In this document: positions 20,747 to 64,000 of the stretch, one piece after another
Position numbering within the stretch: position 1 is the first letter of the stretch
How the letters are laid out: each line of letters opens with the position of its first letter
NCBI GenBank assembly: GCA_965214705.1
Contig: CBDCCI010000002.1
Coordinates: 2,368,001 to 2,432,000 of the forward strand
Length of the DNA stretch: 64,000 nucleotides
Reading direction: 5' to 3'
Source of the DNA: Alphaproteobacteria bacterium
GTDB lineage: Bacteria; Pseudomonadota; Alphaproteobacteria; UBA828
The notes under the pieces: generated by a model
Database searches by the model: none
Told to the model about the DNA's origin: nothing
What the model saw: only the letters and a program-made list of their open reading frames with translations
Made by a program: the position numbers and the translations under genes

Positions 20747-22738
20747 ATGGAGGTTGCGCGCGTCGGCCCGGACCGGCGGAGTGAAACCATCGTCCGCCAG
20801 CCGTCGGACAGTCAGGACGGCCCCGTTTCCTCCCCCGACATCGAGCAGGTCATCCAGGATGCCGCCGCCGGCCTGCGCGGCCTCCAGCACGACGACGGCC
20901 ACTGGCTGTTCGAGCTCGAGGCCGATGCGACCATCCCGGCGGAGTACGTCCTCCTCAACCACTTCCTCGACGAGCTCGATCCCGAGACCGAGGCACGTCT
21001 GGGCACCTACATCCGCAGCCGCCAGGCCGAACACGGAGGCTGGCCCCTCTTCCACGGCGGCGCGTTCGACATCAGCTGCACCGTCAAGGCCTACTACGCC
21101 CTCAAGCTGATCGGCGACGCCCCTGACGCCCCGCACATGATGCGCGCCCGCGAGGCCGTGCTCGCCGCCGGCGGCGCCGCGCGCTGCAACGTGTTCACGC
21201 GGATCACGCTCGCACTCTTCGGCCAGGTGCCGTGGCGCGCCGCGCCGGCGATGCCAGTGGAGATCATAAAGCTGCCGCGCTGGTTCCCCTTCCACCTGGA
21301 CAAGGTCTCCTACTGGTCGCGCACCACCATCGTGCCGCTCACGATCCTGCTCGCGCTCAAGCCTCGCGCCAAGAACCCGCGGGGCGTCGGCATCGCGGAG
21401 CTGTTCACGACCCCGCCGGAGCAGGAATGGCACTATTTCCCGAGGGAGACCCTCACGCAGTGGTCCTTCCTTACCCTCGACCGTGCGCTCACGGTCGGCG
21501 AGAAGGCGATACCGGGCAGGGTGCGCCGCCGCGCGATCGACAAGGCGCTCGACTGGTGCATGACGCGCCTCAACGGCGAGGACGGCCTGGGCGCGATCTT
21601 CCCGCCGATGGCCAACGTGGTCATGGCCTTCGATGCCCTGGGCTACGGGCGCGATCATCCGCCGCGCCGCACCGCCCGCCGCGCGCTCGACCTGCTGCTG
21701 ACCGAGCCGGTGAACGGCAGCCAATACTGCCAGCCTTGCGTCTCGCCGGTCTGGGACACGGGGCTCGCTGCGCTGAGCCTCATGGAGTGCGACGGTGAGC
21801 AGGACCGCCGCGCGGCGGACGATTCCCTCCCCTGGCTCGCCGACCTGCAGATCTGCGATCTCGCGGGCGACTGGGCCGCCATGCGGCCGGACGCCCTGCC
21901 GGGAGGCTGGGCCTTCCAGTACCGCAACGACCATTACCCCGACGTGGACGACACGGCGGTGGTGGCGATGGCGCTCCACCGCGCCGATCCCCAGGCGCAC
22001 CGCGAGGCGATCGAGCGGGCGGCCGCGTGGATCATCGCCATGCAGAACGAGAACGGCGGCTGGGGCTCCTTCGACGCCGAGAACGAGCACTACGCGCTCA
22101 ACCACATTCCCTTCGCCGACCACGGCGCCCTGCTCGACCCCGCGACCGCCGATGTCAGCGCGCGCTGCGTGAGCTTCCTCTGTCAGATCGGCTATTCGCG
22201 CGAGCACGAGACCGTCGCCAAGGGGCTCGCCTATCTCCTCGCGGAGCAGGAGGAGAACGGCTCCTGGTTCGGCCGCTGGGGCACCAACTACATCTACGGC
22301 ACCTGGTCGGTGCTCTGCGCCCTGAACGCCGCCGGCGAAGACCCGGCCTCGCCCGCCGTCCGCAAGGCGGTCGCCTGGCTCGAAGCCAAGCAGCGCGCCG
22401 ATGGCGGCTGGGGCGAGACCGGCGACAGCTACTATGCCGAGCGCATCGAGACCGCGTTCGACGTGGTCTCGACCCCGTCGCAGACCGCGTGGGCGCTGCT
22501 CGCGCTCATGGCTGCGGGCGAAGTGCGGAGCGACGCGGTGCAGCGCGGCATCGACTATCTCTGCGGCGCCGAGCGCGAGGGGGCGAAGTGGCTGGAGGAC
22601 GACTACACCGCGGTCGGCTTCCCCCGCGTCTTCTACCTCCGCTATCACGGCTACAGCGCCTACTTCCCGCTGTGGGCACTGGCGCGCTACCGCTCGCTCA
22701 CGCGCGGCAACGACCACCGCCCGCGCTACGGCATGTAG
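20747..22738 (+). CDS. shc: Squalene-hopene cyclase
   Basis: YPDVDDTA (DXDD), ELEADATIP, multiple QW repeats, GRWGTNYIYGTW, GFPRVFYLRYH; start position uncertain. Confidence 0.95.
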   Translation: MEVARVGPDRRSETIVRQPSDSQDGPVSSPDIEQVIQDAAAGLRGLQHDDGHWLFELEADATIPAEYVLLNHFLDELDPETEARLGTYIRSRQAEHGGWPLFHGGAFDISCTVKAYYALKLIGDAPDAPHMMRAREAVLAAGGAARCNVFTRITLALFGQVPWRAAPAMPVEIIKLPRWFPFHLDKVSYWSRTTIVPLTILLALKPRAKNPRGVGIAELFTTPPEQEWHYFPRETLTQWSFLTLDRALTVGEKAIPGRVRRRAIDKALDWCMTRLNGEDGLGAIFPPMANVVMAFDALGYGRDHPPRRTARRALDLLLTEPVNGSQYCQPCVSPVWDTGLAALSLMECDGEQDRRAADDSLPWLADLQICDLAGDWAAMRPDALPGGWAFQYRNDHYPDVDDTAVVAMALHRADPQAHREAIERAAAWIIAMQNENGGWGSFDAENEHYALNHIPFADHGALLDPATADVSARCVSFLCQIGYSREHETVAKGLAYLLAEQEENGSWFGRWGTNYIYGTWSVLCALNAAGEDPASPAVRKAVAWLEAKQRADGGWGETGDSYYAERIETAFDVVSTPSQTAWALLALMAAGEVRSDAVQRGIDYLCGAEREGAKWLEDDYTAVGFPRVFYLRYHGYSAYFPLWALARYRSLTRGNDHRPRYGM

Positions 22739-47741: not shown

Positions 47742-47774
47742 CGAAATTCCTCAAAGATGCCTACCTCCCCCTGT

Positions 47775-49138
47775 CCCCATAAGCGCTAACTTGTTTGTCA
47801 TGTCGGCACTCCGTATTGTGGGTTGGTGCGCGCTGCGGGGAGGCTTGGCGGATGGACGAGGAGTGGGAAGTGGTGTCGTTGTTTCTGCCCGAGGGCTGGC
47901 GGGAGTTGGCACGGGAGACCGGGGCCTTGAAGGGTCTGCGCAAGGACAAGTCGGTCGATGCCCTGCTGCGCACGCTGTTGCTGCATCTGGCCTGCGGACA
48001 CTCGCTGCGCGAGACCGTGGTGCGTGCCCGGAAGGCGAACCTGGCCGATCTGTCCGACGTGGCCTTGTTGAAGCGGCTGAGGAAGTCGGGGGATTGGCTT
48101 CACGCGTTGTGCGTCGCGCTGTTTCGCGAACGGGGGATGGCGATGTCGGCCGCTGGCGGGTTCCAGGTCAGGGCCTTCGACGCGACGACGGTGAAGGAGC
48201 CGGGCCGGACCGGGGCGCTGTGGCGCCTGCACTACAGCGTGCGCCTTCCGTCGCTGGCGTGCGACTTCTTCAAGCTCACGGCGAGCGAGGGACGGGGCAC
48301 GGGCGAGGCGTTCTCGCAGTTCCCGGTCGGCGAGGGCGACTTTGTGCTCGCCGACCGGGCGTACTCGACTGCTGCGGGCCTCCACCACGTGGTGTCTGCG
48401 GGGGGTCACGTCACCGTGCGCGTGAACACCGGGTCGCTGTCGCTTCGAACGCGCGACGGCGCGCCGTTCGACCTGCTTGCACACGTCACGACGCTGAAGC
48501 GGGTCGGCAGCGTGCGATCCTGGCCCGTGCTGGCGGTCGGCGACGGCATCGCGGTGCCGGGGCGCGTGTGCGCGATCAGAAAGACGCAGGAAGCCATCAG
48601 GCTGGCGCAGCGCAAGCTGCGCAAGGAGGCCGGGCGCAAGGGCAAGCAGGTTCGGCCGCGAACCCTGGAGTTCGCGCGCTACGTCATCGTGTTCACGACC
48701 TTTCCCGAAGCGGCCTTCAGCGCGGCGCAGGTCCTGGAGTGGGATCGCACCCGCTGGCAGGTCGAACTGGTCTTCAAGCGCTTCAAGTCTCTGGCGCAGT
48801 TGGGGCATCTGCCCAAATACGACGACGAGAGCGCCAAGGCGTGGCTCTACGGCAAACTCCTGGTGGCGCTGCTGGTGGAAAAGCTGATCCGTCATGCCGG
48901 CACGGTTTCCCCCTGGGGATACAGCCTGGAGGCGCTGCCGGCCGCACAGCGCCTGGCGTGACTTCAGGTTCATGCTCAACCAGGGCGTGCGAGCCATCGA
49001 ACCCCATTTGTCCCTCGCCGAGGTGATCGACCAATGGAACCAGATCTCCAAATCCCTCTCCGAACCGTCCCGACGGCGCCTGACCCAAACCGCGGAACGC
49101 TTCATCGAAGAACCGCAAACAAGTTAGCGAATGTGGGG
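47775..49138 (+). mobile_element. IS4-family insertion sequence
   Basis: IRs CCCCATAAGCGCTAACTTGTTTG / CAAACAAGTTAGCGAATGTGGGG; no clear target duplication seen. Confidence 0.8.
47852..48961 (+). CDS. IS4-family transposase
   Basis: SDVALLKRLRK, FDATTV, LADRAY, RWQVELVFKRFKS. Confidence 0.85.
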   Translation: MDEEWEVVSLFLPEGWRELARETGALKGLRKDKSVDALLRTLLLHLACGHSLRETVVRARKANLADLSDVALLKRLRKSGDWLHALCVALFRERGMAMSAAGGFQVRAFDATTVKEPGRTGALWRLHYSVRLPSLACDFFKLTASEGRGTGEAFSQFPVGEGDFVLADRAYSTAAGLHHVVSAGGHVTVRVNTGSLSLRTRDGAPFDLLAHVTTLKRVGSVRSWPVLAVGDGIAVPGRVCAIRKTQEAIRLAQRKLRKEAGRKGKQVRPRTLEFARYVIVFTTFPEAAFSAAQVLEWDRTRWQVELVFKRFKSLAQLGHLPKYDDESAKAWLYGKLLVALLVEKLIRHAGTVSPWGYSLEALPAAQRLA

Positions 49139-49235
49139 AGGTGGGGCCCCTCCTCGCCAAAGACTTCTGGCCGTTCTACCTGCTGGCCAGAGCGCTGGGG
49201 CCGGTAGGATTGTCGGTCTGGCAGTTCGGGAAAGC

Positions 49236-49567
49236 GAAGCTTGAGGTTGTCGTACCAGAGCTCGCCCGGCACGCCTTGCCACGCCTCGAAGGCCGCGACG
49301 TGGCCGCGCAGGAAGCTGCTCATGCCGGCGTCGAGCTAGAAGCGCAGGAAGAGCCGCTGCGAGTAGTTCAGCACCATCACGAAGGCCATCAAGCGGCGCA
49401 CCGCGCGACCGATCCTCACCGTGCAGAAGTGGGCCCAGTCGACCTGGGCCTGCTCGCCGGGAAGGGTCTTGAGGCGTAGATAGGCCTCGGCCGCTCGCGG
49501 GCGACGAGGCGGCGGAAGTGGCTCTGACTCCCTCGATAGTCGGCGGCGGTGATCAGCTTTCGGAGCC
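49236..49567 (-). pseudogene. IS21-family IstA fragment
   Basis: [19 protein letters not shown]...FVMVLNYS...[21 protein letters not shown], with an internal stop and a frameshift. Confidence 0.75.
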
Positions 49568-49995
49568 TAGAGCACAATCCTATCTGACTGAATCGAAAGG
49601 GATTCCCAAGGCGTCTGGTTTGTGCTTCACACTGTCTGCCGGGAGGGAGGCCGGCAGACATGTCGAAAGCGCTTTCCCTTGATCTTCGGGTTCGGGTCCC
49701 TGAGGCGGTGGCCGAGGGCGTGAGCCACCGCGCCGTTGCGGCGCGCTTTGGTGTGAGTGCGGCGAGTGTCAGCCGTTGGTGCAGGCGGGCACGTGTTGAG
49801 GGCGAGTCTCGCCCGAGAGCACTGGGCGGAGACCGTCGCTCCGCTCGCATCGAAGCGCATCGTGCGCTGATCCTCGACGTGCTGGCTGAGACCCCCGACG
49901 TCACCATCGAGGAGTTGCGCCGCCTGCTCGCCGGGCGCGGGCTCGACTTCGGCTATGGCACGATCCAGCGCTTCCTCGTCCGCCAGGATATGGCC
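49568..49995 (+). mobile_element. Truncated IS630-family element (left end plus HTH part of transposase)
   Basis: TA-GAGC end; MSKALSLDLRVRV...AARFGVSAASVSRW...PDVTIEEL from 49660; no DDE part. Confidence 0.75.
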
Positions 49996-50049
49996 TGCAG
50001 CGCGACAGTGGCGGAAAGTATCGACATACAGGGTGCCGGAACCGGCGAT

Positions 50050-50457
50050 ACGGCACCGAAACCGCGCGTGGTCGTGGTGGACTACGGGGTCAAGGGAAAC
50101 ATCGTCGACAACCTCGTTCGCAGGGATATCGACGTCACCGTCGTGCCGGCAGAAGCCTCCTCGAGGGACATTCTGGCGCACGATCCCGACGGTATTCTGC
50201 TGTCCAACGGTCCCGGCGATCCGATGGCCGTGGCGCCGTACACCGTTCCCATGATCGAGACCCTGCTCGAGCGGAAGCTGCCGTTCTTCGGCATCTGCCT
50301 GGGGCATCAACTCCTGTCCCTGGCGCTTGGCGGAAAGGTGACCAAGATGCCTTTCAGCCATCATGGCGCCAATCATCCGGTTCTGGAGAAGGCCAGCGGC
50401 CGTGTGGTGATCACCAGCCAGAATCACGGTTTCGTCGTCGACCGCGACACCTTCCCT
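50050..50457 (+). pseudogene. carA: Fragment of carbamoyl-phosphate synthase small subunit (GATase domain)
   Basis: VDYGVKGNI, LSNGPGDP, FGICLGHQLL, HHGANHPV, ITSQNHGF; N-domain and HPE motif missing. Confidence 0.82.
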
Positions 50458-53318
50458 CGCATCGCGCCACGCGCCGTCCGAGACGTAGTCGAGCGCCGCC
50501 TCCTTGGGCTCGGAGCGCGACCAGCGCTCGCCAAGGTAAGCCCTGATGTCACTGTCCAGGACCGGGCGCTCCACCTCGTCCTCGGGCCGTCTTCCCGCGA
50601 TGTCGAAGGCGAGCTGCGACCAGTTGACATAGACGTCGATTCCCTCGCGATGCCGAGTCGCGGCGGGATAGATCGTCTCTCGCGCCGGACGGTCGTCCAC
50701 CAGCAGGAAGGCGCGGTCTACGGTCAGCCCCTGGGCCGAGGCGATGGTCATCGCATAGCCGTAGTCGAGCCGGACGTTGTCGTGCCAGTCGCGGATCTCG
50801 TCGTGGCGGAACGCGACACGCCTGCCGTCGTCCGTGCGCGCCGTGATGTGGACGGAAGGCTCAGCCTTCGACTCGTTCCCCGAACTCTCGGACGCGCTCG
50901 TCTTGCCGTCCCTGCGTCCGCCGGCTAGCCGGTTCCGGGCCTTGCGTGACACTGCGGTGTCGTCGCCACGCCGGACTTCGAGGTCTTCCACCGTGACGAC
51001 GGTGCCGTTGAAGAGCTGCTTCTCCCACTGCGTGGAGCCGATGCGGATGCGATCGCCCACGGCGATCTCCAGCGGCTCCGTCACGCGCCCGTCAAGGCCC
51101 CGGCTCACCTCGATCACGGCACGCTTCGCATCGGGCGTCTGCGCAAGCACCCGCAGCCGCATGAGCCAAGACAGCGCCCGCGCCTCGGCCCGCGTGCGAG
51201 CCAGCACCACCGTCGAGGCATCGGGCTCCGCACGCACATGCCGTTCCCAGTCCTCGACGAGCTTGGTCAGGGTCTTCTCTTCGTCGTGGCAGAGATGGAA
51301 GCGGTTGCGCAGATGCCACGCCTCGATCGCCTGCTCTGCCTCTCCGTCCCTGAGCGCCTCCGACACCGCCACCTGCCACGGCGTGAACAGGGGTTTCTTC
51401 TCCATCGCCTCGTAGTCGGCGAGAATCGCGTCGCGCTCCTGGGGATTGGTCAGCCCTGCCCGGAAGCGCGCCTGTTCCGGCGTCTCCTTGTGGACGTGGA
51501 CGAGAACGTCCTCGAGGTCCGCCTTCTGGCGCCTGATGCGGTCGACGCGGACGCTACCGGCGATGTCCCGGATCAGCCTGAGTCCCGGCCCTGCCTCCAC
51601 CGGCTGCTGTTGCCGCGTGTCGCCAGCGAACACCACCTTCGCCTCGTGGCGCTCCGAGAGCTGCAGGATATGATGCGCCTGTCGCGTGGACAGCATCCCC
51701 GCCTCGTCCACCACGATCAGCGTGCGCTTGCCGATCTCCACCTGGTCCTTCGCCGCGAGCTTCAGCAGCTTGTCCACGCAATAGGCACGCGCATCGCAGT
51801 CGTCGCCGAGGGCCACGGCGGTGCGCCAGGCCACGGCGGTCGGCACGATCTCGTAGCCGTGCTCCTTGTGAAGGTCGGTGATGGGCCTGAGCGTCGTGGT
51901 CTTGCCCGAGCCCGCAGCGCCCTCGATTACTGCCACCCGTCCGCCCTTCACCGTGGCATGGTGGATCGTCAGCGACTGCTCTTGGCTCAGCGGATATCCC
52001 TGCTCCAGCAGGGTCTCCAACCTCTCCTTCACCGCCCCTTCCGGCAGGCCGTGGCCGGTATCTTCGGCCATGGCCTCGGCCATGTCGCGCACCGCCTGCT
52101 CGAGGCCGAGATTGTGGCGCGTGGAATAGACCTCCGTGTGGGCCATGCCGGCGCGGGACTCGGCCGTCGGCTTCTTGGGCTCCAGCCGCTCGATCTCCGG
52201 ATTACGGCGCAGCCGCTCGATGGCCGTCCCCACCGCCTCCCGGCCCATCAGACCGGCCGCCGCGTTCGCCGCCGCCTCCACCATGTCCGGGCGCCGGAAC
52301 ACCGCCTCCTCGCGAGCGAGATGGGCGGGGAGATCGTCGAGCCGGTCGGTCAGCTCCCGGATTTCTTCACGGTCGATCCTCACCTCATGGCCGGTCACCG
52401 AGGCGATCAGCGCCTCGCGCTCGCAGAAACCCTCGGCCTCGCCGCGCCAGCGGCGGTGCCTCACCTCCGGGTCATTGTCGTGCGACTTCCCCTCGCGCGT
52501 GAGCTTGTTCACCCCCGCCATGCGGGCAGCATTGCCCAATGACGGGATGCCCAGCTCCCCCGCCCTGGCGACGATCGCCTTCCTGCGCTTCGACCAGAAG
52601 GATTGCAGGTCCTCCGGCATGCCCACGATGCGCGTGAACTCCACGTTGGGACCGTACTGCTGCATCCTGACGCCCAGGTTCTGTTGCAGCTCCCACGCCA
52701 CATAGGCCCGGAACAGGGCGCCCGCCGCCTTCTTCCAGTTGTAGACCGGGTACTGGTGATGCGCCCGCCACTTGCCGTCCTCGCGGGTCCTCGCGAGATT
52801 GAAGATCGTGCAGTGGACGTGAAGCTGCGGGTCGTTCTCCCTGCTGGTACCGTGGACGAAGGTCGCGCCCATCAAGTCCGCCTCCAACGGCCGGGTCACC
52901 CCCTTCTCGCTCACGCGGGTGTAGCTGCAATGCTTCAGCACCGAGTCGTCGAGTGCCGCCCTGGCGGCGGCCACGGCCATTGTCTCGATCCGTTCGCGCA
53001 TCTCCGGCTCTGCGATGGCCCACAGTGCCGACACGCTCTTGTCCACCGAGAACGTCATGTCGATGCCGGGGGAGCGGTCCGGGTTGCCGGCGCGCTGCAC
53101 CAGCTTGCCGGATCCATCAGGAGCGAAGCCCGAGTAGAGGCGATGGAAGTGGCCGCTGTCGACCTTTGCCCCATCCTCCAGACCGAACAGGCCCTTCGGG
53201 TTGAACCAGGTGCCGTCCGGCTCCTCGGCCGCCGTGTAGTACTCGTTGGGGTGCCGGAACGAGCGTTGCTCTCCAGGTAGTATTCGGCAGACGCCATCTG
53301 ACCGATGGTCGCTACCAT
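50458..53318 (-). pseudogene. MOB-F (TrwC/TraI-like) relaxase-helicase, frameshifted and C-terminally truncated
   Basis: EYY..EYY Tyr pairs, DMTFSVDKSVS, HGTSRENDPQLHVH (HUH), FWSKRR, GAAGSGKTT, VDEAGM, YAMTIASAQG; frameshift near 53268. Confidence 0.85.
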
Positions 53319-53500
53319 GGCGGCAGGTTCCCGAACCGTTGGGCGAACGCGTTCATGACCGCCGGGGCCTGACCAGCAATACCCGACGCCGGCAGCCTTT
53401 CATGGCCAGCTGCGACTGCGTGAAGGGGCACGCCAAGTCCTTGTACAGGTGTTATATCGTTCGGCCTCCATGGCCAGTCAGGCGGCTCCGTTTCGCTCCC

Positions 53501-53530
53501 GCAAGCGTCAGCTTGCACAGGTGTGGCGGG
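53501..53530 (+). other. Candidate oriT (inverted repeat + nic-like site)
   Basis: GCAAGC-GTCA-GCTTGC then ACAGGTGT^GG, similar in layout to F oriT (IR then GGGGTGT^GG); about 180 bp upstream of the relaxase. Confidence 0.5.
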
Positions 53531-54062
53531 TTACTTTCTCTCTCGCGTGCTTCACTCACCACGAGATACATCATGTAGCGAGTCGCTCGGCGGGAATAAC
53601 AAGAGATAGTATCGGTCCGGGCGCTTCACCTGAACGGTGCACCTTCCTGGATGGCAAGGTGGGGCGGCATGGCGCTTATTCGTAGCTGCTTGAGAGTGTC
53701 GAGATAATCGGGGCGCGGGGAGAGAGTGGCGAAGCGCTCCGATTCAGCGGGGATGAGCGACAAGGCGATGGCGGCCGCCTTGGCGAATCCGGTGCGAACC
53801 ACCATGAGCGCCATCGATGCGCAGACCGGGTGCGAGAGCGCAGGCTCGAGCGATCATTCGAGGGCGTAGCGCTGACAATTGGCGTCTGGCGGTGCAGTGG
53901 CGAAGTGACACGGAAGGGCGTTGGCCACAGGCAGGGAGGGCGGAGCGCGGGCGATGGCGGAGCGCAGCAACGCTTGACGTATCGCGACACGATACGGGAA
54001 GGATGATGCTGGCGCATAGCGCCGAGCGCGGGATGGCGATGCCGTCCGCCCCGCCGTCCGAC

Positions 54063-54504
54063 AATCAAGGGTCGCAAACGCCACATCCTCACCGACACCG
54101 GCGGCCTGTTGGTTGCCGCTCAGGTCCACGCCGCCAACATCCAGGATCGCGACGGCGCTCCCTCGGTGCTTGCGTCCATCCGCCACGCCTTCCCCTGGCT
54201 GCGTCACGTCTTCGCCGATGGTGCCTATGCCGGCCTCAGGCTCGCGGCGGCTCTGGAGCGGATCGGTCGGTGGACCCTGGAGATTGTCCAGCCCCGGCTG
54301 GTACGCGAGGGTTCGATATCCTGCCGCGCCGCTGGGTGGTCGAGCGCACACTGGCTTGGTTGAACCGCAATCGACGGCTCGCCAAGGACTTCGAGGCCAC
54401 CGTCGCCACCGCCCAAGCGTGGCTCTTCATCGCCAGTGTTCAACTCCTCACCAGAAGACTGGTAAGATACTGAAAATCAATATCTTATTATAGGCCAGAC
54501 TCTT
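54063..54504 (+). pseudogene. IS5-family (IS1031-like) transposase 3' remnant with right end
   Basis: [50 protein letters not shown] across frameshifts; ends ..AGACTC-TTA. Confidence 0.8.
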
Positions 54505-54615
54505 AGACTATACTCTTCGCGGTCGTTGTCTGCTGGGACATTCGCTGTGAGACAACACCTGGAGTCATGGCGAGATCAGCGGCCTTGATCGGTGTCTTCG
54601 CGGGCGAACCCCTGA

Positions 54616-55350
54616 TCAATAGCCGAGAACGCTGTAGTCGCCGTTCACGATCAGGCGAATCGAGACGTAGAGGCCCAGCAGGGCGAACAGCACCCACGGG
54701 CAATTCAGCGCCCAGATATAGATGTACATATCCTTTCGGCCGAGGCGGCTTTGTCGATTGGCCACGAAGAAGCTGACCCAGTAGACCGACGTCGCGTAGG
54801 TCAACTGCCAGAATATCATCGCTCCCATAATGCCGGCGACGAGGGCGGGCAAGAAATCGACGGTGAAGGCGGCAAAGAGGATCAGCGTCGGTACCGGCGT
54901 TACGAAGCCGTTGGCGATATCTACGTTGTAACCGTATGTGCGCCGGTCCGCGTAGGAACTGTCGAACTGGGAATACGTGGCCCAGACGTCCGCCCACATC
55001 GTCGACGACAATATTCGCGTCAAGGGAACCCTTCCAGTAAGGAATTCGGCGGCTGGTGTCCGGCCCGTTTCCCGCCGGCGTTCGCGCCAGTATTGGGCGC
55101 GCTTCTCGATGTAGTCGCGGTTGAAGAACAGGCATATCTCCCAATGGCAGATCACCAGATTGATGGAAAAGAAGAGGATCAGCAGTGCATGAATGACGTC
55201 GAAATCCCCGCGGACGCCGTAGCGCGCACCGATGCCGGACGCTGTCAGAATTGCGATGACCAGCCCCGTGAATACGACCGGCGCAATCGCCAACCGAGTC
55301 CGGTGGGTGTCGCGACCCGAACGGGTTTGCGCGGCTTGCTTTTCGGCCAT
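54616..55350 (-). CDS. EXPERA/EBP-like membrane protein, candidate sterol Delta8-Delta7 isomerase
   Basis: Multi-TM; VWATYSQFDSSY resembles EBP LWKEYAKGDSRY; ALNCPW resembles EBP MNALW; sterol-gene context; ATG at 55350. Confidence 0.62.
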   Translation of the reverse strand: MAEKQAAQTRSGRDTHRTRLAIAPVVFTGLVIAILTASGIGARYGVRGDFDVIHALLILFFSINLVICHWEICLFFNRDYIEKRAQYWRERRRETGRTPAAEFLTGRVPLTRILSSTMWADVWATYSQFDSSYADRRTYGYNVDIANGFVTPVPTLILFAAFTVDFLPALVAGIMGAMIFWQLTYATSVYWVSFFVANRQSRLGRKDMYIYIWALNCPWVLFALLGLYVSIRLIVNGDYSVLGY

Positions 55351-55538
55351 GTGGTCCCATCCTCTCTGGCGCTGCGGCGTTGCCTCTCGCCCCATTGTAC
55401 CCTGTGGAAAGTTCGACGCCCCGAACAAGGGCGCTACGCCTGGGACTCCGTGGATATCGGCGTCATGAAGCGAGGCATCGGAGTTTCCCATGGCTTTCCG
55501 GTCTTGGGGACGACGTGCGGCTCTGGCAGAATGTGCCC

Positions 55539-56570
55539 ATGAATCGCACCTCCGCCACCCGATCGAAAGCGCGCTCCCTCGCGGGCCTCGCCCCGGACGA
55601 AGTAAAGTCCACGGTCGATGGATACACCGAAATCTTTGACGCCGGCCTGGAGCACAGGAAAGAGCATTATCGCTCGTTCGTGAGTCGCTACTACGACCTG
55701 GCGACCGACTTCTACGAGTTCGGTTGGGGCCAATCCTTTCACTTCGCACCCCGCAGCCGGGGCGAGAGCTTCAAGGCATCGCTGCTCAGACACCAGCATT
55801 TTCTCGCTGAAAAGCTGTCCCTGAAGCCGGGTATGCAAGTAATCGATCTGGGATGCGGGGTCGGCGGACCGATGGGCAATCTGGCCCGTCATTTCGGGGC
55901 GAGCTTTGTCGGCGTCAACAACAACGCCTACCAGATCGAGCGCGCAAGACTGCACACTCGGGATGTCCAGTCGTTATGTCGCTTTATTCACAGTGACTAC
56001 ATGGAGATTCCCGACGACGACGACCGCTACGATGCCGCCATGGCGATCGAGTCCATGCCCCACGCACCCGACAAGACAGCGGCGTTCCGCGAGGTCTTGC
56101 GCGTGCTGCGTCCGGGGGCCTGTTTCGCGGGCTACGAGTGGTGCGTTACCGACATATTTGATACCGGCAAGACGGAGCACCGGCGAATAAAAAACGATAT
56201 CATGGCCGGGAATGGGCTGCCGGATATCGCGACCACGTCGGAAGTTTCCGCCGCATTGCAGACGGCTGGATTCGAGCTCCTGGAAGCGCGCGACCGCGCA
56301 CCCGAAGCGGACCCGGAGATGCCGTGGTACCGTTCCTTGCAGGGCCGCGACCTCAGTCTTTCGAGTATTCCGCGCACGCCGGTCGGCCGCGTTCTGACTA
56401 ATTTCACTTTGCGGGTGGGAGAACGGCTGCGGCTCTTTCCCGAGGGCGCCCGCGCAGTCAGCACGCTCCTGAATGCGGGAGCGGACGCGCTGGTGGACGG
56501 CGGCAAGTCCGGCGTCTTCACGCCGATGTTCTTTTTCCTGGCCCGCAAACCCGGGCGCCCGCGCGACTGA
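55539..56570 (+). CDS. Sterol C24-methyltransferase (SMT/ERG6-like)
   Basis: YYDLATDFYEFGWGQSFHFA (region I), IDLGCGVGGP (SAM), AIESMPHAP, LRPG..FAGYEW, C-terminal GVFTPMF. Confidence 0.9.
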   Translation: MNRTSATRSKARSLAGLAPDEVKSTVDGYTEIFDAGLEHRKEHYRSFVSRYYDLATDFYEFGWGQSFHFAPRSRGESFKASLLRHQHFLAEKLSLKPGMQVIDLGCGVGGPMGNLARHFGASFVGVNNNAYQIERARLHTRDVQSLCRFIHSDYMEIPDDDDRYDAAMAIESMPHAPDKTAAFREVLRVLRPGACFAGYEWCVTDIFDTGKTEHRRIKNDIMAGNGLPDIATTSEVSAALQTAGFELLEARDRAPEADPEMPWYRSLQGRDLSLSSIPRTPVGRVLTNFTLRVGERLRLFPEGARAVSTLLNAGADALVDGGKSGVFTPMFFFLARKPGRPRD

Positions 56571-56629
56571 ACGAAGCGGGCCTTCGTCCGCGCGGCGCTG
56601 CGCGAGACCACCCATACTCTGGACGGGGA

Positions 56630-59600
56630 TCAGGCGGCAGCCGCTTCGGGCGGGGGTGGCGACGTGTCGGCGGCACACGGAGCGTGGGCGGCGAGACCCA
56701 GCCGCTGGCGGCGGCGCTGCTCGTAGAGGGCGAGCGCGTGCAGCGGGAAATACTGTCGATACAGCACGTAATCCAGGAGCGCCGTGCGGAAGAAGACGCC
56801 CGCCATGTCCTGCTTGGGCCATGTCCCGTCCGCGTCCTGTGCGTCGAGCAGAAAGCGGGCGCCCCGCGAAATCGCGGTCCAGTTCGATTCGCCCGCCTCG
56901 AGGAGCGCGATCAACGCCCACGCGGTCTGGATGACCTGGCTTTCGTCGTGCGGGACATACCGGCCGGTCAGGCATCCGCTGTGGTGCTCGCCCCATCCGC
57001 CGTCTTCTCGCTGGCGCTCCAGCAGCCAGCGGCAGGCCGAGCGAAGCGCCGGATCGCCGGGGCCGGCCCTGGCGGCAAGAAGACCCCTGACCCCGAAGAG
57101 GGTGCCGTAAATGAATTGAACTCCCCATACGCCGCGCCACGACCCGTCGCTTGCCTGGGTCCAGCGAAGCCAGGCACCGGCCCTGGACATGGCGCCCGTC
57201 ACCGCTCCGTTCGCGATTTGCGGAACGTCCTCCATACAGGCGGCGAGCGCCGCGAGGCAGGACGCGGTGCACTCGACATAGGATTGCTCGGTCATCGAAT
57301 CGCCGAACATCTCGGCCGGATTCATCCACTCCAGACCGAAAGCCGAGCGTCGCGCCTCGTAGCTGCCGAAGCCGCCATCGCGGTTCTGGCAGCGCAGCAT
57401 GAACCCGACCGCATCGCGCAACGCGCTTGCGTGCGCAGCACCGCGACCGGCGGCGTGAAGTCCGAGCACCGCTTCCGCAGTGCAGTCGCTCACCGGCCAG
57501 CCGTGCCATCCTCCGGCAAAGCACCAGCCGCCCCTGGGGTCGGTTCGATAGGCCTCGCGAAACCCTTCGAAGCTGGCGGCGATCTGTTCCCCGAGCAGGA
57601 AGTCGGCGCCGCGCTGCAGCGCGTCCCCTACCCCGCCGAACGCGGGCACCGCCGCCAGCGCCTGCAAGGCGAAGCCGCTGTCCCACGAGGCGCTTCTCGC
57701 GCCGACGACACGCGCACCCTCTTCCTCGTCTTCCCAGATCCAGTCGTCCAGCTTCGCGAGCGCCTGGCGCAGATCGGCGTCGTCCGGATCGCGCAGCCAC
57801 AGGGCAAGCATGTTGAGAAGGCCGCTCACCGGAGAGATGCTCGTATGGCTGGTGGTCTGCAGCTCCCATCTGATCTGCCGGACGATCGCCTCCGTGCATC
57901 GGGCACGCAGGCGTTTGCCGTGGAGCCGATTGAACACGCGCGCAATCTTGTATCCAACCTTGAGCCACACGCTCGGCCGCGCGTAGAGGTCGGCCTCCCG
58001 CAGGCGATTGCGGGCGGCGGAGAAATCGACCTCGGCAAAGCCATGGGGGTACAGCTCCTCCCGCAACGACGCGATCGCGGGCGTGACGGGCGCCTGGAAG
58101 CGGTGCGGGTAGATCGCCGCCATGGCCATGTAGATGAGCCGGGTATGGCAGTACCAATTCGAAGGATGCAGGGGCAAGCGGCGCGGCAGGCTCCACAGTT
58201 CCGGCAGAACGGCGTTGACCCCGCGCCAGTCGTAGAGGTTCAGCAGCGCCAGCCAGAACTTTCCCCAGCTCGGAATGCCCACGATCCCCTCGGCCTGGAT
58301 GAAGCGCCGGGCCGGCTCGACCAGCGGATCGTCCCGCTCGACCCCGAGCAGCCTGGCCGCGACGTAGACCAGGGCGGTGACGAAGAGGTGGGGCGAAGAG
58401 TGCTCGTGCAGACCCCACGAGCCCGCTTCGAGACGGGTCCGTTCGAACGAGCGCAGCACGCGCCGGCGCCGGCCGGGCTCGAGCGGCCGCCCGATGATGT
58501 GGTGCAGCAGCACATATTGCGCGGTGAGCATGGGGCACCAGACCATCTCGCCCTCCCAGCCGCCATCCTCGCCCTGGAGGCTCAGGAGGTGCGCGGTCGT
58601 GCTCCCCAGAGCCGGACCGGCATCGGGCGCCTCGGAGTCCTTCGGCCGGCCGGACCCGGAAGCGTGGGGCCGCGGCGGCATGGAGTGCAAAAGTGCGCGG
58701 GCCAGGCTGTCCAGGGCTCGCTCGTCATTCCGCCCGCCCTGGCGTCTCGACTGGCGTAACTGCAGAGCCCAGCGCAGGAGCCACAAGAGACGAACGGTGA
58801 GAGCCCCGAAGATCTTCAGGCCCCGACGCGGAGCGAACCGGCGCAAGGAGAGCGGAATCTCCACGGCCGCCGCACGGGCCGCCGTTGCGAAAAACGCGAG
58901 ACCCATCTCGAGCGCGGATCGGTCTTCGCAGGCGAGTATCCGCGTGGTCCGGTCCCGGTAATAGGAGTTTGTCCGCAATCCTCGGTAGACCGCGTGTCTC
59001 ATCGCCACCGCCTCGGCCCGATGATCGGCAAAGACCTCGTAGAGCCCCATGGCGAGCAGCTCCGGCACTTGGGTGGCCCGGAAACGCCCGGCGGCGAACT
59101 CGCGAAAGCTGCCGCTCTCGGCGAGGGCAAGCGCGTCACCGAAACCGAGGGTCATGCCGACCGCCGTCATGGGATGGTAGTGCCCGGCCGCGTCGCCGAT
59201 CAGCACACGACGCGGGGTACCGTATGTGACTCGCGGCCGCAGCTGATTGGCCGCAACGTGGAATTGCCCCGCCCGCACCGCTTCGACGAACCCCGGCCTG
59301 AGAGCTTCCGGCAGCAGAACGGCATGGGATTCGGTCAGGAAGCCGATCCGGTCCTGGCGTGTCCAGCGGTCCAGCGGAACGTCGACGATGATCCGGACGC
59401 AACCCTTTGCCAAACCGTATGCGAGAATCGGCCCCGGCCCGCCGAGCAGCACATGCCCGTGACCCTCGAAGGGCAGGCTCACGTCGCTCACCGTGATCCC
59501 CAGCATCCGCGAGCAGAGCATCGGGTCTGTCGACAGGCCCAGGGATTGGCGCACGATCGACGCCCGGCCGTCGGCGCCGACAATCCGCGCGGCGTCGAGG

Positions 59601-60043
59601 GTGTGAACCGTGCCGTTGTTGCTGTAGGACAGCCGCTCGTCTTCGACCGCATTCACCCGCGCATGGGTGAAGAAATCCACATCCGCCTCCTTCTCGACGG
59701 CTTCCCGCAGTGTCGAGACGAGCAAGGCGTGTTCGCAAGCCAGACCCTGCGAGCCATTCGTGTAGGGAAGGACGATCGGCTCCGAGCCGTCTTCCGGGAA
59801 CACCACGAAACCCCTGCCCGTGGCGCTGCGGGGCAGGGTGTCGAGCCCGATCCCGATGTCCTGCAGTATCTGTACCCCAGGTGGATGCAGCCATTCGCCC
59901 GCCAGGCGCTCTGACCCCTTGGGATTCGCTTCGAGCAGAACCACCCGGGCGCCCTTCCGCGCGTGAGCGAGCGCGCACAGGCTCCCGACCGGCCCCGCGC
60001 CGACAATGGCCACGTCGTAACGCCGCGACGCGGCGCCGCTCAT
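56630..60043 (-). CDS. Squalene epoxidase-oxidosqualene cyclase fusion (1137 aa)
   Basis: N-half: IVGAGPVG, RLAGEWLHPPG, GDAAGHYHPMTAVGMT. C-half: PSWGKFWLALL, WYCHTR, HGWPVSDCTAEA, YVECTAS, QW repeats. One uninterrupted frame. Confidence 0.9.
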   Translation of the reverse strand: MSGAASRRYDVAIVGAGPVGSLCALAHARKGARVVLLEANPKGSERLAGEWLHPPGVQILQDIGIGLDTLPRSATGRGFVVFPEDGSEPIVLPYTNGSQGLACEHALLVSTLREAVEKEADVDFFTHARVNAVEDERLSYSNNGTVHTLDAARIVGADGRASIVRQSLGLSTDPMLCSRMLGITVSDVSLPFEGHGHVLLGGPGPILAYGLAKGCVRIIVDVPLDRWTRQDRIGFLTESHAVLLPEALRPGFVEAVRAGQFHVAANQLRPRVTYGTPRRVLIGDAAGHYHPMTAVGMTLGFGDALALAESGSFREFAAGRFRATQVPELLAMGLYEVFADHRAEAVAMRHAVYRGLRTNSYYRDRTTRILACEDRSALEMGLAFFATAARAAAVEIPLSLRRFAPRRGLKIFGALTVRLLWLLRWALQLRQSRRQGGRNDERALDSLARALLHSMPPRPHASGSGRPKDSEAPDAGPALGSTTAHLLSLQGEDGGWEGEMVWCPMLTAQYVLLHHIIGRPLEPGRRRRVLRSFERTRLEAGSWGLHEHSSPHLFVTALVYVAARLLGVERDDPLVEPARRFIQAEGIVGIPSWGKFWLALLNLYDWRGVNAVLPELWSLPRRLPLHPSNWYCHTRLIYMAMAAIYPHRFQAPVTPAIASLREELYPHGFAEVDFSAARNRLREADLYARPSVWLKVGYKIARVFNRLHGKRLRARCTEAIVRQIRWELQTTSHTSISPVSGLLNMLALWLRDPDDADLRQALAKLDDWIWEDEEEGARVVGARSASWDSGFALQALAAVPAFGGVGDALQRGADFLLGEQIAASFEGFREAYRTDPRGGWCFAGGWHGWPVSDCTAEAVLGLHAAGRGAAHASALRDAVGFMLRCQNRDGGFGSYEARRSAFGLEWMNPAEMFGDSMTEQSYVECTASCLAALAACMEDVPQIANGAVTGAMSRAGAWLRWTQASDGSWRGVWGVQFIYGTLFGVRGLLAARAGPGDPALRSACRWLLERQREDGGWGEHHSGCLTGRYVPHDESQVIQTAWALIALLEAGESNWTAISRGARFLLDAQDADGTWPKQDMAGVFFRTALLDYVLYRQYFPLHALALYEQRRRQRLGLAAHAPCAADTSPPPPEAAAA

Positions 60044-61449
60044 CGGAAGACGCTCGGCTGCGCGCAGCGACGGTAGCGGACCCGGCACGGTCTCTCGGGT
60101 CCCGTCACCCAGCTGCCGTAGTTCGGACGCGGAAACGCGCCGCTGGGAGTGAAGTCGAAACGATCGAGCAGAACGGTCCAGATCGCCTTGAGCTGCATGT
60201 AGGCGAAGTTCTTACCCATGCACGCGTGCTTGCCGCCGCCGAAGCCGATCAGGGCGTAGCGGTGTTGCCTGTCCTCGCTGGCGGGAGGCGCGAAACGGTC
60301 GGGGAAGAAGCGCTCCGGGTCGGCGAATATGTGGGGCAAGCGGTGAGAGACCGCCGGCGACACCATGGCCATGGAGCCGGCGGGCACGACACGGCCTCCG
60401 TAGCGCAGGGGTTCGAGCACCTTGCGGATCAGCAATATCAGCGGCGGGTGCAGCCGCTCGCACTCGCGGACGGCATTCTCCAGAGCCGGCTGGCGCTGGA
60501 GACTGTCGATGCTCATGCTCCCCGCTTCGCGATAGACGTCCTGCACCTCGTCTCTTACCCGCGCCAGGTACGCCGGCGCCCGGAGCAGCTCCAGACCGGT
60601 CCAGGTCGCGAGCACCGCACTGGTGTGCTGGCCCGCGAACAGCACCGTCAGCAGGATCCCCGTGATCTCGTCGTCGCTCAGGGCGCGGCCGCTCTTGTAG
60701 CGGGCGTTCATGAGCGTCTGCATGAAGTCGTCGGGGCTGGCCCCCGCATTCCGGCGCGCCGCCATGATCCCGCCGAAGAGCTCCGCCACCCGTCGCCGGG
60801 CCCTGTCGCGCTTTCGATGCGACGCAACGGGAAGCCTGGGAAGAAAGAATCCCAGGGTGTTAATGCCCTTCTGCAGGTCGTGGTAGGTCTCGGCAAAGCC
60901 GGTATCCACCCGATCGCGGACTTCCTGTCCGATCAGGCAGCGGCTGGCGATCTTGACCGTGAGCTCGTTCATCGCGTGCGGCAGATCGATTTCCCCATCC
61001 TCGCCCAGGGCGTCGGCGAACTGCCGCGCCTCATCGAACATGACGAGGGCGAACCTGCGCATTGCCGCCTCACGGAGCGCTGGAAAGAGAAAGCCCAGCT
61101 GCTCCGCCATGATGTCGGGGGAGGTGTCGTAGGCCACGCCGCGCCCGAAGATGGGCACGGTGAAGCGGTAGACGGCCTTGGCGTTCAACTGCTCCTCGGG
61201 CGTCCTGAAATAGAAGTCGTGGGCTTGGGGACCGGAGAAGAGAACGAAAGCGCGGGTACCGAGCCGGAAGCGGAAGAGCTCACCGTGCTCGCGCCAGCCG
61301 CGGCTCAACATGGCGACCGGATCTCTCTGGAACTCCGGCAAATGGCCGATCAGCGGCCAGCGGCCCGCAAGCTCGGGAAGGGGCTCGTCTGCCCGCGGCG
61401 GCAGATTCGCCGTAGGCAGGGTCGCCATGCTGTCGGTTCGGTTGGCCAT
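60040..61449 (-). CDS. cyp51: Cytochrome P450, sterol 14-alpha-demethylase type
   Basis: YRFTVPIFGRGVAYD, FAGQHTS, ExxR (ECERLHPP), FGGGKHACMG heme motif. Confidence 0.9.
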   Translation of the reverse strand: MANRTDSMATLPTANLPPRADEPLPELAGRWPLIGHLPEFQRDPVAMLSRGWREHGELFRFRLGTRAFVLFSGPQAHDFYFRTPEEQLNAKAVYRFTVPIFGRGVAYDTSPDIMAEQLGFLFPALREAAMRRFALVMFDEARQFADALGEDGEIDLPHAMNELTVKIASRCLIGQEVRDRVDTGFAETYHDLQKGINTLGFFLPRLPVASHRKRDRARRRVAELFGGIMAARRNAGASPDDFMQTLMNARYKSGRALSDDEITGILLTVLFAGQHTSAVLATWTGLELLRAPAYLARVRDEVQDVYREAGSMSIDSLQRQPALENAVRECERLHPPLILLIRKVLEPLRYGGRVVPAGSMAMVSPAVSHRLPHIFADPERFFPDRFAPPASEDRQHRYALIGFGGGKHACMGKNFAYMQLKAIWTVLLDRFDFTPSGAFPRPNYGSWVTGPERPCRVRYRRCAQPSVFR

Positions 61450-61457
61450 CTCCGCTC

Positions 61458-62558
61458 TCAATGGATGAAGGGCAGCATCGCGAAGCGCGCCCGCTGCGTG
61501 TAGCGCTCCCACAGCTCGCCGTACTTGGCGCGGCAGCGGCGCTCGTCGCGTCTCGAACGGTGCCACAGCAAGCCCGCTAGCCACGCCGGCAACAGGAAGG
61601 GAGCCCAGGACGTAAGCCCGGTGGTCAGGGCGAAGGCGAGGTAGACGCAGATCTCGCCGGTGTAGTTGAGGTGCCGGCCGATGCCCCAGAACCCGGAGAC
61701 CAGGAGGCGCCCGTCCAGGGTACGGGCGGGCTTGCCCCAGATCCTAACGTTGGAATCGCGCTTGAAGCGGTGCTTCTGCTGATTGGACCCGCGGAAGAGC
61801 CAGAAGCCGAAAACGAAGAGCACGACGATCCCGGCGGCGGCGGCCGGAGACAAGGGCTCCGGTGCGTGAACCAGCCACCAGCCGGGGAGACAGTAGAAGA
61901 AGGGCACCAGCACGTAATCGCCCCAGACCAGCATCCATCCGAAGCGCTCGCGGACGATGTCCCAGGTATGGATCATCCCCTGTTCGAACTGGAAGTAGTT
62001 GAGCACGTAGAGGAAGGTGAAGGTCTGGTAGAGCATCATCGCCAGGGTCAGCTCGCCGTAGGTCTCGTACTGCACGGCGGCAAACGATGCGTTGAAGAGC
62101 GCTAGGCCGATGAGGGAGGGGCAGTAGCTGAAGAGCTTGATATCCAGCCCGAGCCAGGATGGAGCGGCGTCCACCCCGTAGAAGAAGTCCCGCCATGATC
62201 TGGGCGATGCATGAGGCTTTCGCACCCCGCGCAGGTAGAGCCAGCCGGAGAGGGCGAACGCGAATCCGTTCGCCACGACGAACAGGGCGAGCAAGTGGGT
62301 ATGCAGCACCGAAAGGGAGAGCACGCCGGAGGCTTGCGCGCCGCACGCCGCAATCATGACGATCAGATAGAGCGCGAGGCCGTTGAGCTTGTAGACGCGC
62401 TCGTTCCCGTCGGCATCCGGGCCCGTGATCCGACGACCCGGCAGCAGCAGCGAAGCCACGAAGAGGAGGGCGATGAACCCCAGCACCATCGCCGCCGCCT
62501 CGAGCAGGGTCTCGCCCGAGAGCGCCGACGAGAGGTTGAGCGCTTCAGGCGGCGGCAT
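61458..62558 (-). CDS. ERG4/ERG24-family sterol reductase (probably Delta14)
   Basis: WDIVRERFGWMLVWGD, FRGSNQQKHRF, LLVSGFWGIGRHLNYTGE, RDERRCRAKYG. Confidence 0.88.
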   Translation of the reverse strand: MPPPEALNLSSALSGETLLEAAAMVLGFIALLFVASLLLPGRRITGPDADGNERVYKLNGLALYLIVMIAACGAQASGVLSLSVLHTHLLALFVVANGFAFALSGWLYLRGVRKPHASPRSWRDFFYGVDAAPSWLGLDIKLFSYCPSLIGLALFNASFAAVQYETYGELTLAMMLYQTFTFLYVLNYFQFEQGMIHTWDIVRERFGWMLVWGDYVLVPFFYCLPGWWLVHAPEPLSPAAAAGIVVLFVFGFWLFRGSNQQKHRFKRDSNVRIWGKPARTLDGRLLVSGFWGIGRHLNYTGEICVYLAFALTTGLTSWAPFLLPAWLAGLLWHRSRRDERRCRAKYGELWERYTQRARFAMLPFIH

Positions 62559-63642
62559 CGCCGCTCTCCGACCCGCGCGCCAGATGTTCCTGCCACTTGC
62601 GCACGGTCACTTTCTGAAAGGCCCTGACCACCGGATTGAACTCGACAGGACGGGCGTCCCAGTGTCTTTCGTATCCCTCCTGCTCCGCCTCCAGCGCGAA
62701 CCGGTCCTGGGTGAGCAGGGGGGCGATGAGCAGGCGATTGGAGACCTTCATGACCGCGGTCATGGCGAAACGGGGAATGCGCACCGGCAGCAGAGGTACT
62801 TTCAGCGACTTGAAATAGAACAGGAAGAACACCCGGCTGGTGCGCTCGTCGACCGGCAGCACGAAGAGCCAGTGCTTTATTGCGTCGTCGGTGTTCGACC
62901 ACTGGTAGGGGTACTCGTAGCAAAGCTCCATGCGGTTGGTGTTGAGCCGCCGATGATCGACGAAGAGGCCCGAGATGCGCCCGCGCCCCACGTGCGTGTC
63001 GTAGGCGAGATGCACGTTGTCGCCGAGGGTCTCGCAGCGGGTGAGGGTGGCCCCGTCGAAGGGCCGGTAGCGGCGGTGCAGGTGTGCGTGGGTGAAGTCG
63101 CTCACATTGTCGATCACCATCGAGTGGTGTGCCGACCAGGTGAAACAGAGCGGCACGCAGGCCCAGCGGCCGGATCCCTCGAGCTCAGGAATGTCCGGAA
63201 TCCGGCGCTCCTCCGCCAGCGCCGGATCTCCCGGGAAGAGCCAGATCAGACCGTAGCGGACCTTCACCGGATAGGTCTTGAGCGCAAGATTCGGAAAGCT
63301 TCGCCCCTCGCGATCATGGGGCACCCCGGCGGGACGCCCCTTCCCGCCATACTCCCAGCCATGGTAGGCGCAGACGAGCCGGCATCCCTGCACGTCGCCC
63401 AGGGAGAGCTTGAGCTGGCGATGCGCGCAGCGATCCTCGACCGCCTGGAAGGTGCCGTCCTTTCCCCGGAAGAGCGCGATGGAACGCTTCCAGAAGACGA
63501 CCTCGATCACCGTCTCCGGCTTGATCCGGCGCAATTCCTCGACCGGATACCAGTAATTCGGGTCCATGCCCGCGGCGCGAGCCTGCTGGCGCAGGTTGCC
63601 GGCGTCCTCGAAGCCGGGCGGCGCGGCGGGCGCCGCCCTCAT
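62545..63642 (-). CDS. Rieske non-heme iron oxygenase, SdmA-like sterol C-4 methyl oxidase candidate
   Basis: CAH..CAYH Rieske ligands, DNVSDFTHAHLH Fe site; operon context. Confidence 0.75.
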   Translation of the reverse strand: MRAAPAAPPGFEDAGNLRQQARAAGMDPNYWYPVEELRRIKPETVIEVVFWKRSIALFRGKDGTFQAVEDRCAHRQLKLSLGDVQGCRLVCAYHGWEYGGKGRPAGVPHDREGRSFPNLALKTYPVKVRYGLIWLFPGDPALAEERRIPDIPELEGSGRWACVPLCFTWSAHHSMVIDNVSDFTHAHLHRRYRPFDGATLTRCETLGDNVHLAYDTHVGRGRISGLFVDHRRLNTNRMELCYEYPYQWSNTDDAIKHWLFVLPVDERTSRVFFLFYFKSLKVPLLPVRIPRFAMTAVMKVSNRLLIAPLLTQDRFALEAEQEGYERHWDARPVEFNPVVRAFQKVTVRKWQEHLARGSESGDAAA

Positions 63643-63960
63643 GGCGCGCTCCCGCCTGCCATCATCCGCATGCCCTGGTCCGGCGCGGGATCACCCTCCT
63701 CACGCGTAACATGCCGACTCGCGGCGTCCTCGCACGGGCGCTTCGCGTGCGGGTTCGCGATCTTGTTGCGGCCGTAGTGGAACGCATAGGCCTCATGAAC
63801 CGCGGCACGGAGGCCGGTCGGCCGATAGCCGAGCTCCCGTTTCGCCTTGGAGATGTCGGCGTGGCGGCACTTTCGCAACAGGCGTATGGCGCCGGGGGTG
63901 AAGCGCTGGGGAAAGCCCGGGTGAACCCGACTCAGATAGAAGCTCGCGATTTCGGCAAAG
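63639..63960 (-). CDS. C-terminal part of an NAD-dependent epimerase/3-beta-HSD-type SDR, SdmB-like candidate (partial)
   Basis: Frame reads FAEIASFYLSRVHPGFPQRFTPGAIRLLRKCRHADISKAKRELGYRPT; ATGA overlap with the Rieske gene; 5' part not visible. Confidence 0.6.
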
Positions 63961-63968
63961 GTTAAGGG

Positions 63969-64000
63969 TTGGGCAGGCTCTCTCTCGAGAGCCTGCCCAA
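63969..64000. repeat. Perfect hairpin at window edge (possible IS end or REP)
   Basis: TTGGGCAGGCTCTC-TCTC-GAGAGCCTGCCCAA, with TTAA at 63962-63965. Confidence 0.6.

Follow-up and report, generated by a model that had tools for sequence, protein, structure and literature searches.

Introduction

Gene clusters for sterol synthesis have been described in bacteria that live in sponges, one of which is the six-gene msb cluster (msbA-F) of a gamma-proteobacterial symbiont of the sponge Melophlus sarasinorum (PMC7074536). One product of this cluster, MsbE, is known from its annotation as a fusion of a squalene epoxidase (SE) and an oxidosqualene cyclase (OSC). Proteins called 'fused SMO/OSC homologs' are mentioned by Brown et al. 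2023 (PMC10070321), who, in the passage concerned, trimmed them for an OSC tree as a data-handling step only. For symbionts of Ircinia sponges, ERG24-CYP51-LSS clusters were reported in 115 of 537 metagenome-assembled genomes (MAGs) from 10 phyla, together with horizontal transfer and purifying selection of these steroid clusters (PMC9531527). The words 'fused' and 'fusion' are absent from PMC7306690, and PMC8237579 has 'fused' only in the title of a reference. Here, we analyze a stretch of 64,000 nucleotides, referred to as the window, from an Alphaproteobacteria bacterium of the UBA828 lineage (assembly GCA_965214705.1, contig CBDCCI010000002.1, positions 2,368,001 to 2,432,000). Near one end, on the minus strand, it contains a gene in which an SE half and an OSC half are joined in a single polypeptide.

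Results

The Fused Gene and Its Two Halves

The open reading frame (ORF) containing this gene runs uninterrupted over 56630..60088 (minus strand) and has 1152 amino acids when counted from a GTG. An ATG at 60043 shares bases with the TGA stop of the P450 gene upstream (ATGA) and, because of this overlap, is the likely start. From this start the fusion gene spans 56630..60043 (minus strand) and encodes 1137 amino acids followed by a stop; its G+C content at third codon positions (GC3) is 0.83. Residue numbers given below are those of the 1137-residue protein, except for Pfam domain limits, which follow the 1152-residue numbering. Matches to Pfam, NCBIfam and PDB entries show that the SE half precedes the OSC half within the single ORF. 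The Pfam domains are, in order, FAD_binding_3 (24-323, 85.8 bits), SE (PF08491, 170-406, 84.8 bits against a gathering cutoff of 20.1), SQHop_cyclase_N (497-788, 172 bits) and SQHop_cyclase_C (799-1123, 173 bits).

We then searched for relatives. A protein search by word index gave 1207 significant matches, of which the best 120 clusters were examined (70-98% identity, 996-1168 residues); all 120 carry both the SE and the cyclase Pfam domains. A genome search with one genome per species returned 399 stretches encoding a relative, and the best 80 (L001-L080) were analyzed. In each of these 80 loci a single tblastn alignment spans the junction, and the match begins no later than residue 23 and ends no earlier than residue 1119 of the query. 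Because all 80 loci and all 120 protein clusters carry both halves, the comparative sequence record identifies the SE-OSC fusion as a real gene, with chance or artefact excluded. The original prediction of one polypeptide combining an SE half with a DCTAE cyclase was thus borne out by the Pfam, NCBIfam, PDB and Foldseek matches, and the domain-architecture search that it proposed found SE together with SQHop_cyclase_N/C in one protein, both here and in the relatives. Its premise that SE and OSC are normally separate did not hold up as well: the fused form is common among the best matches, further fused clusters exist at 38-51% identity, and the fusion was already in print (PMC7074536, PMC10070321).

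The OSC domain comprises residues 470-1120 (56684..58636, minus strand). Its closest solved relative is human lanosterol synthase (1w6k, E 2e-127), which Foldseek also recovers with a TM-score (TMt) of 0.84. The domain exceeds the cutoff of the squalene/oxidosqualene cyclase model TIGR01787 (500.3 bits against 322.7), and the 2,3-oxidosqualene cyclase model TIGR03463 is by far the top NCBIfam model of the fusion, the hopene cyclase model reaching 271 bits. The DCTAE motif (D853-E857; 57473..57487, minus strand) lies within the sequence VSDCTAE, whose valine, V851, corresponds to human V453. When the window protein was aligned with the 80 loci (81 sequences), the D, C and T of this motif and V851 were each invariant, and A856 and E857 were each present in 80. 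Also invariant are the residues mapped from the human alignment, namely D853, C854, C925, H633, Y895, W973, F1084 and Y1092.

The FAD-binding and substrate-binding part of the SE half comprises residues 1-312 (59108..60043, minus strand). It contains an N-terminal GxGxxG Rossmann FAD site (GAGPVG, 15-20), E38, and the DG and GD flavin-binding motifs (D158-G159 and G283-D284); G15, G17, G20, E38, D158-G159 and D284 are each kept in 81 of 81 sequences. By sequence, the closest solved relative of this half is human squalene epoxidase (SQLE), with an E value of 2.7e-26; the next flavoenzyme has 9.3e-9. By predicted fold it is again human SQLE, for which Foldseek aligned the 6c6r chain over 475 columns covering all 451 target residues (TMt 0.84 against 0.73-0.78). 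A helical, membrane-associated C-terminal domain that completes the substrate pocket is predicted at residues 313-451 (58691..59107, minus strand), as judged from the AlphaFold2 model and Foldseek, and includes a basic, Trp/Leu-rich helix at 405-435.

Together with its position in a sterol operon (see below), these features make it probable that this gene of a bacterial sterol operon is bifunctional, with a bacterial-type FAD squalene monooxygenase joined by a short connector to a lanosterol-type OSC. The fusion probably takes squalene to lanosterol.

The Junction and the Coupling of the Two Steps

The AlphaFold2 model of the 1137-residue protein was built with a 68-row alignment and has a mean predicted local distance difference test score (pLDDT) of 86.6 and a predicted TM-score (pTM) of 0.79. 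It places helices at 377-401, 405-435 and 439-451, with pLDDT values of 53-72 over 377-451; values below 50 occur only at 455-469, and the cyclase fold begins near residue 470. The flexible connector, rich in P, G and S, therefore corresponds to residues 452-469 (58637..58690, minus strand), and the disordered part of the junction is predicted to be only about 18 residues long. The original prediction had placed a basic, proline-rich linker at 58850-58620. This segment (residues 398-475) indeed has 16 K/R and 6 P among its 78 residues, but in the model most of it belongs to the epoxidase's own C-terminal helical domain. Residues 401-430 have a family mean of 7.1 K+R, and the helix at 405-435 is moderately amphipathic (hydrophobic moment 0.34-0.41 against a protein mean of 0.23). 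A transmembrane linker was also considered and rejected, as the top 19-residue Kyte-Doolittle windows of the family average only 1.0-1.4 and none of them lies in 400-480. Substitutions in locus L006 by codon position number 28/20/23 in the linker and 60/50/178 in the cyclase, a comparison that leaves out the mis-registered cyclase row of L004. The bias toward third positions is thus small in the linker relative to the cores, a pattern that points to a junction that is translated but weakly constrained.

The original prediction had suggested that the fusion could channel its intermediate. According to this explanation the halves are docked in fixed positions relative to each other, and 2,3-oxidosqualene passes straight between their active sites, which would keep it away from squalene-hopene cyclase (SHC), and so from hopanols, and from a second epoxidation. 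We regard this as possible but doubtful. In its favor, the pTM of the whole model exceeds the value of ~0.6 that we estimate for independently placed domains and hints at a defined domain arrangement, and the connector is short. In 119 proteins of the close family, 207-211 residues separate the GD motif from the first cyclase motif, with exactly 210 in 109 of them. Moreover, an SHC is encoded in the same window, and the hopene cyclases tested in PMC12324236 also used oxidosqualene, in agreement with what the original prediction had assumed of SHCs. However, no interface between the halves was seen, and Foldseek found no solved entry covering both of them. In the wider fused clade the distance between these two motifs varies from 178 to 221 residues (50 proteins; 49 others fell outside the pattern), and the helices beside the connector have pLDDT values of only 53-72. 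The small third-position bias in the linker also argues against a fixed arrangement. Since lipid substrates can enter either enzyme from the bilayer, no tunnel is required. In addition, bacteria that have an SHC together with unfused SE and OSC exist. A stricter version, in which the helical domain and the cyclase form a fixed docked machine with a shared membrane-facing portal and the epoxide never leaves the protein, is somewhat less likely again.

The best-supported account is instead one of tethering, which provides co-localization, stoichiometry and portability, with a true channel as a minority possibility. Both halves would lie on the cytoplasmic membrane surface, and the C-terminal helical domain of the SE half would be the counterpart of the membrane-associated part of the human enzyme. 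The first half would draw squalene out of the bilayer and epoxidize it, and the second half would take up 2,3-oxidosqualene and cyclize it, probably to lanosterol. The tether would guarantee 1:1 amounts and nanometer proximity of the two active sites, and it would make the two committed steps one portable unit in a cassette moved between phyla. The membrane association and any kinetic benefit of this proximity are inferred.

Points against the Assignment and Alternative Activities

Several observations weigh against the assignment as a squalene-to-lanosterol fusion. On the cyclase side, the TIGR03463 score of 742.9 bits is below the cutoff of 851. The invariant residues A782 and H847 are found where human OSC has T381 and C449, so the combination of T381 with C/Q449 of eukaryotic lanosterol synthases is absent, and the scheme of PMC4919349 treats a histidine at human position 449 as cycloartenol-type. 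An invariant methionine, M500, is aligned to human Y98. On the epoxidase side, F79 and H53 replace human Y195 and Q168, and this F/H combination is present in all 81 aligned sequences. No flavin reductase or ferredoxin gene is visible in the sterol operon. Finally, a full-text literature search, with subscription journals and supplements outside its scope, found no assay of the fused enzyme.

The cyclase-side differences raise the alternative that the product of this half is not lanosterol but cycloartenol, parkeol or another triterpenol. The histidine at position 449 would fit cycloartenol, the alanine at 381 fits neither scheme, and the loss of Y98 would be in line with another product; metagenomic bacterial OSCs are reported to have given lanosterol, parkeol, cycloartenol, isoarborinol or eudoraenol (PMC12324236). 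Against this, valine at position 453 is invariant here. In the bacteria tested by Wei et al. (PMC4919349), V at this position tracked lanosterol (I tracked cycloartenol), and of the positions in the scheme only 453 held in bacteria. The authors who described msbE likewise called lanosterol from this valine (PMC7074536). Judging from these residues we consider another product unlikely and lanosterol the probable one, and we hold the latter no more firmly because human positions 381, 449 and 98 are A, H and M here.

Much less probable is that the N-terminal half is a flavin monooxygenase acting on a substrate other than squalene. This explanation draws on the F79/H53 replacement, on the low identity to human SQLE (22-23% in Foldseek) and on matches to many UbiH-type NCBIfam models, all of them far under their cutoffs. 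Human SQLE does need the hydrogen-bonded Y195-Q168 pair, and Y195F lost >90% of its activity (PMC6327030). However, among 54 bacterial SE-type representatives (27 unfused, 10 fused to an OSC and 17 of the kind fused to squalene synthase (SQS)), H is found in all 54 and F in 53. Because this holds regardless of fusion, F79/H53 is a trait of the bacterial SE branch rather than a defect of the fusion, and because the H/F combination is near-universal in bacterial representatives, the Y195-Q168 pair marks the eukaryotic enzyme and not the bacterial branch. The Pfam score well above the gathering cutoff and the top rank of SQLE both by sequence and by fold also argue against another substrate. Moreover, the bacterial SE family is found joined to OSC (nine clusters scanned and P0010) or to squalene synthase (16 clusters), and because these partners use its product or make its substrate, the family is expected to act on squalene. 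We infer that both halves are probably active as SE and OSC.

A spurious long frame, produced by an overlooked stop codon, by a frameshift or by two genes joined in a chimeric assembly, has next to no probability and was rejected, as the 80 loci come from separate assemblies, several of them titled as whole chromosomes, each with a single alignment over the junction, both halves are present in the 120 best protein clusters, and no point in its favor was found.

Distribution and Relatives of the Fusion

The window protein is 98% identical to protein cluster P0002 (1137 amino acids) and to the products of loci L001 and L003, and the DNA of the window is about 97% identical to that of two loci over roughly 10 kb. 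The 80 loci, with protein identities of 67-98%, are titled as belonging to nine named phyla, the names being Alpha-/Gammaproteobacteria, Nitrospirota, Binatota, Actinomycetota, Thermodesulfobacteriota, Verrucomicrobiota, Acidobacteriota, Nitrospinota and Gemmatimonadota. Sequence identities this high across phyla are far beyond what vertical descent would be expected to leave. A sponge-related word occurs in the titles of 8 of the 80 related records, and the fused form is common in sponge-dwelling bacteria.

Clustering at 50% identity reduced the close family to one cluster and revealed nine further SE-OSC clusters at 38-51% identity, each confirmed by Pfam. A second search, started from one of these nine, gave fused proteins in 120 of the 120 matches listed, among them proteins of Myxococcota / Myxococcales MAGs and of Polyangium sp. 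15x6. Unfused representatives are 41-50% (SE) and 43-52% (OSC) identical to the corresponding halves and share the H/F pair.

Next, a FastTree of cyclase domains was built with 88 rows, consisting of 78 of the 150 representatives (those with at least 560 domain residues), eight loci, the window protein and, as the outgroup, the SHC of the window. All 18 fused rows fall into one clade with a support of 100, together with four rows of unfused length. This topology is compatible with, and does not prove, a single origin of the fusion followed by later splits or fragments.

Other architectures were also seen among the 150 best representative clusters (P0193-P0266 and P0213). Sixteen of them consist of an SE, ~100-470 residues without a Pfam match and a squalene synthase; one is a squalene synthase-OSC fusion, and eight are OSCs with long unexplained N-terminal extensions. 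In locus L039, a triple fusion of SE, OSC and P450 was considered and rejected, because a stop at 13345 separates the fused gene from an in-frame ORF and the tblastn alignment had run through this stop. The ORF that directly follows the fused gene in L039 (13382-15403, plus strand) combines GPP34 (Golgi phosphoprotein 3) with a cytochrome P450.

The Sterol Operon and Other Features of the Window

The fusion gene is the last of a minus-strand series with the order SdmB/SdmA-like, ERG24, CYP51, fusion. Directly upstream of the fusion lies a gene for a CYP51-type sterol 14-demethylase (60040..61449, minus strand, probable ATG at 61449), which matches Pfam p450 and whose top PDB matches are all CYP51 (6mcw, E 5.5e-103). 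It is preceded by an ERG4/ERG24-family sterol reductase gene (61458..62558, minus strand; PF01222, 229.9 bits) and by a gene for an SdmA-like Rieske oxygenase of the kind acting in sterol C-4 demethylation (62545..63642, minus strand), which has Rieske and VanA_C domains and scores 401 bits with the SdmA model NF052579, under the cutoff of 600. The C-terminal piece of an SdmB-like reductase (63639..64000, minus strand), cut by the end of the window, matches the SdmB model NF052578 weakly (E 1.2e-4); the SdmB-like gene is kept upstream across loci at 58-98% identity. Divergent from the operon is a sterol methyltransferase (SMT) gene (55380..56570, plus strand, start uncertain), with Sterol_MT_C (73.1 bits) and methyltransferase domains. 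CYP51, ERG24, SdmA/B and SMT would then modify the product of the cyclase. Rieske, ERG24 and CYP51 genes are all present in 65 of the 80 loci, and the order Rieske-ERG24-CYP51-fusion is colinear in 60; a partial set is found in 4 loci and none of the three in 11. An SMT at ≥60% identity is present in 55 of the 80.

The SMT lies within a stretch of lower G+C content (53100-56600; 0.605 for 54001-56000). Its GC3 of 0.73 compares with 0.83-0.88 for the fusion, CYP51, ERG24 and SdmA genes, and this end of the cluster may have had a history of its own. Beside it, the frame 54616-55320 (minus strand) encodes a protein of ~234-244 amino acids whose translation has hydrophobic stretches resembling membrane spans. 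No match to it was found in Pfam, NCBIfam or PDB; it is present in 29 of the 80 loci at 56-96% identity, with 43 invariant columns. An overlapping candidate at this place, the frame 54503-55360 (minus strand), was rejected as a gene (GC3 0.48, Arg-rich translation). SMT genes have been described as often accompanied by three uncharacterized genes (PMC8237579).

The original prediction had referred to a cell that also has an SHC, and a true SHC gene is located at 20747..22738 (plus strand), 34 kb from the fusion, with a TIGR01507 score of 769.7 bits against a cutoff of 431.1. It belongs to a hopanoid locus (18804-25851) with genes for DXS, HpnH (TIGR03470, 557 bits, over cutoff) and IspH. Because these genes occur together at 18.8-25.9 kb, the organism probably makes hopanoids as well, and its SHC would compete for squalene. 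No squalene synthase or HpnCDE was recognized anywhere in the window, and a search limited to 10 kb around the fusion found an SHC in 0 of the 80 loci.

Mobile-element debris is present at 43765-54473 and 25880-29290. The debris beside the sterol cluster includes a TrwC relaxase with helicase domains (49627-53100) and several pieces of DDE transposases, and a PIN/Phd toxin-antitoxin pair and a Mu Gp27-like gene were also found in these regions. The TrwC relaxase is shared with only 1 of the 80 loci, and the DNA similarity between the window and its closest locus, L001, stops just beyond the start of the relaxase.

Discussion

If both halves are active, one gene provides the oxygen-dependent committed entry into sterol synthesis, and it would be a compact part for engineering triterpenoid production. 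If the docked machine described above were true, the protein would be a natural epoxidase-cyclase channel by which a hopanoid-making cell adds sterols without feeding oxidosqualene to its SHC, and a single ORF for both committed steps would explain the spread of the cassette over at least nine phyla of sponge symbionts. Because the fusion sits beside a sterol side-chain methyltransferase, the locus also bears on whether sterols credited to sponges, and sterane biomarkers, can come from sponge bacteria.

Compared with the human enzymes, both folds are recovered, with a TMt of 0.84 each to SQLE (6c6n) and lanosterol synthase (1w6k), and the human OSC residues D455, C456, C533, H232, Y503, W581, F696 and Y704 are kept. 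In humans, however, SQLE and lanosterol synthase are two separate enzymes of the endoplasmic reticulum. The bacterial protein also differs by F/H in place of Y195/Q168 of SQLE, by the absence of the first ~78 residues of human OSC (the alignment starts at human residue 79) and at positions Y98, T381 and C449. Other fusions of this pathway have different partners, namely the SE-SQS and SQS-OSC proteins found in this analysis and the CYP51-ferredoxin of Methylococcus capsulatus (PMC7947880).

The sterol clusters of sponge symbionts are much more similar. Those of PMC9531527 have the same gene order, an upstream reductase and hypothetical gene, and an opposite-strand SMT or FDFT1; the passages of that paper on these clusters call the cyclase lanosterol synthase and, unlike our description of the window, leave an epoxidase half unmentioned. 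The homologs of Brown et al. 2023, as described there, have the same architecture and come from sterol clusters in which sdmA, sdmB and SMT genes are present as well. According to the description of the msb cluster, the NAD(P) oxidoreductase (msbA), Rieske protein (msbB), sterol reductase (msbC), demethylase (msbD) and SMT (msbF) match the genes of the window one-for-one, and MsbE is an SE-OSC fusion like the one studied here, a likeness that is by description and not by sequence identity. MsbE is gamma-proteobacterial, whereas the nearest relatives of the window's protein, at 98% identity, are titled Alphaproteobacteria. The SE-OSC architecture is therefore already known at the level of annotation, and the gene of the window is a further copy of a known kind.

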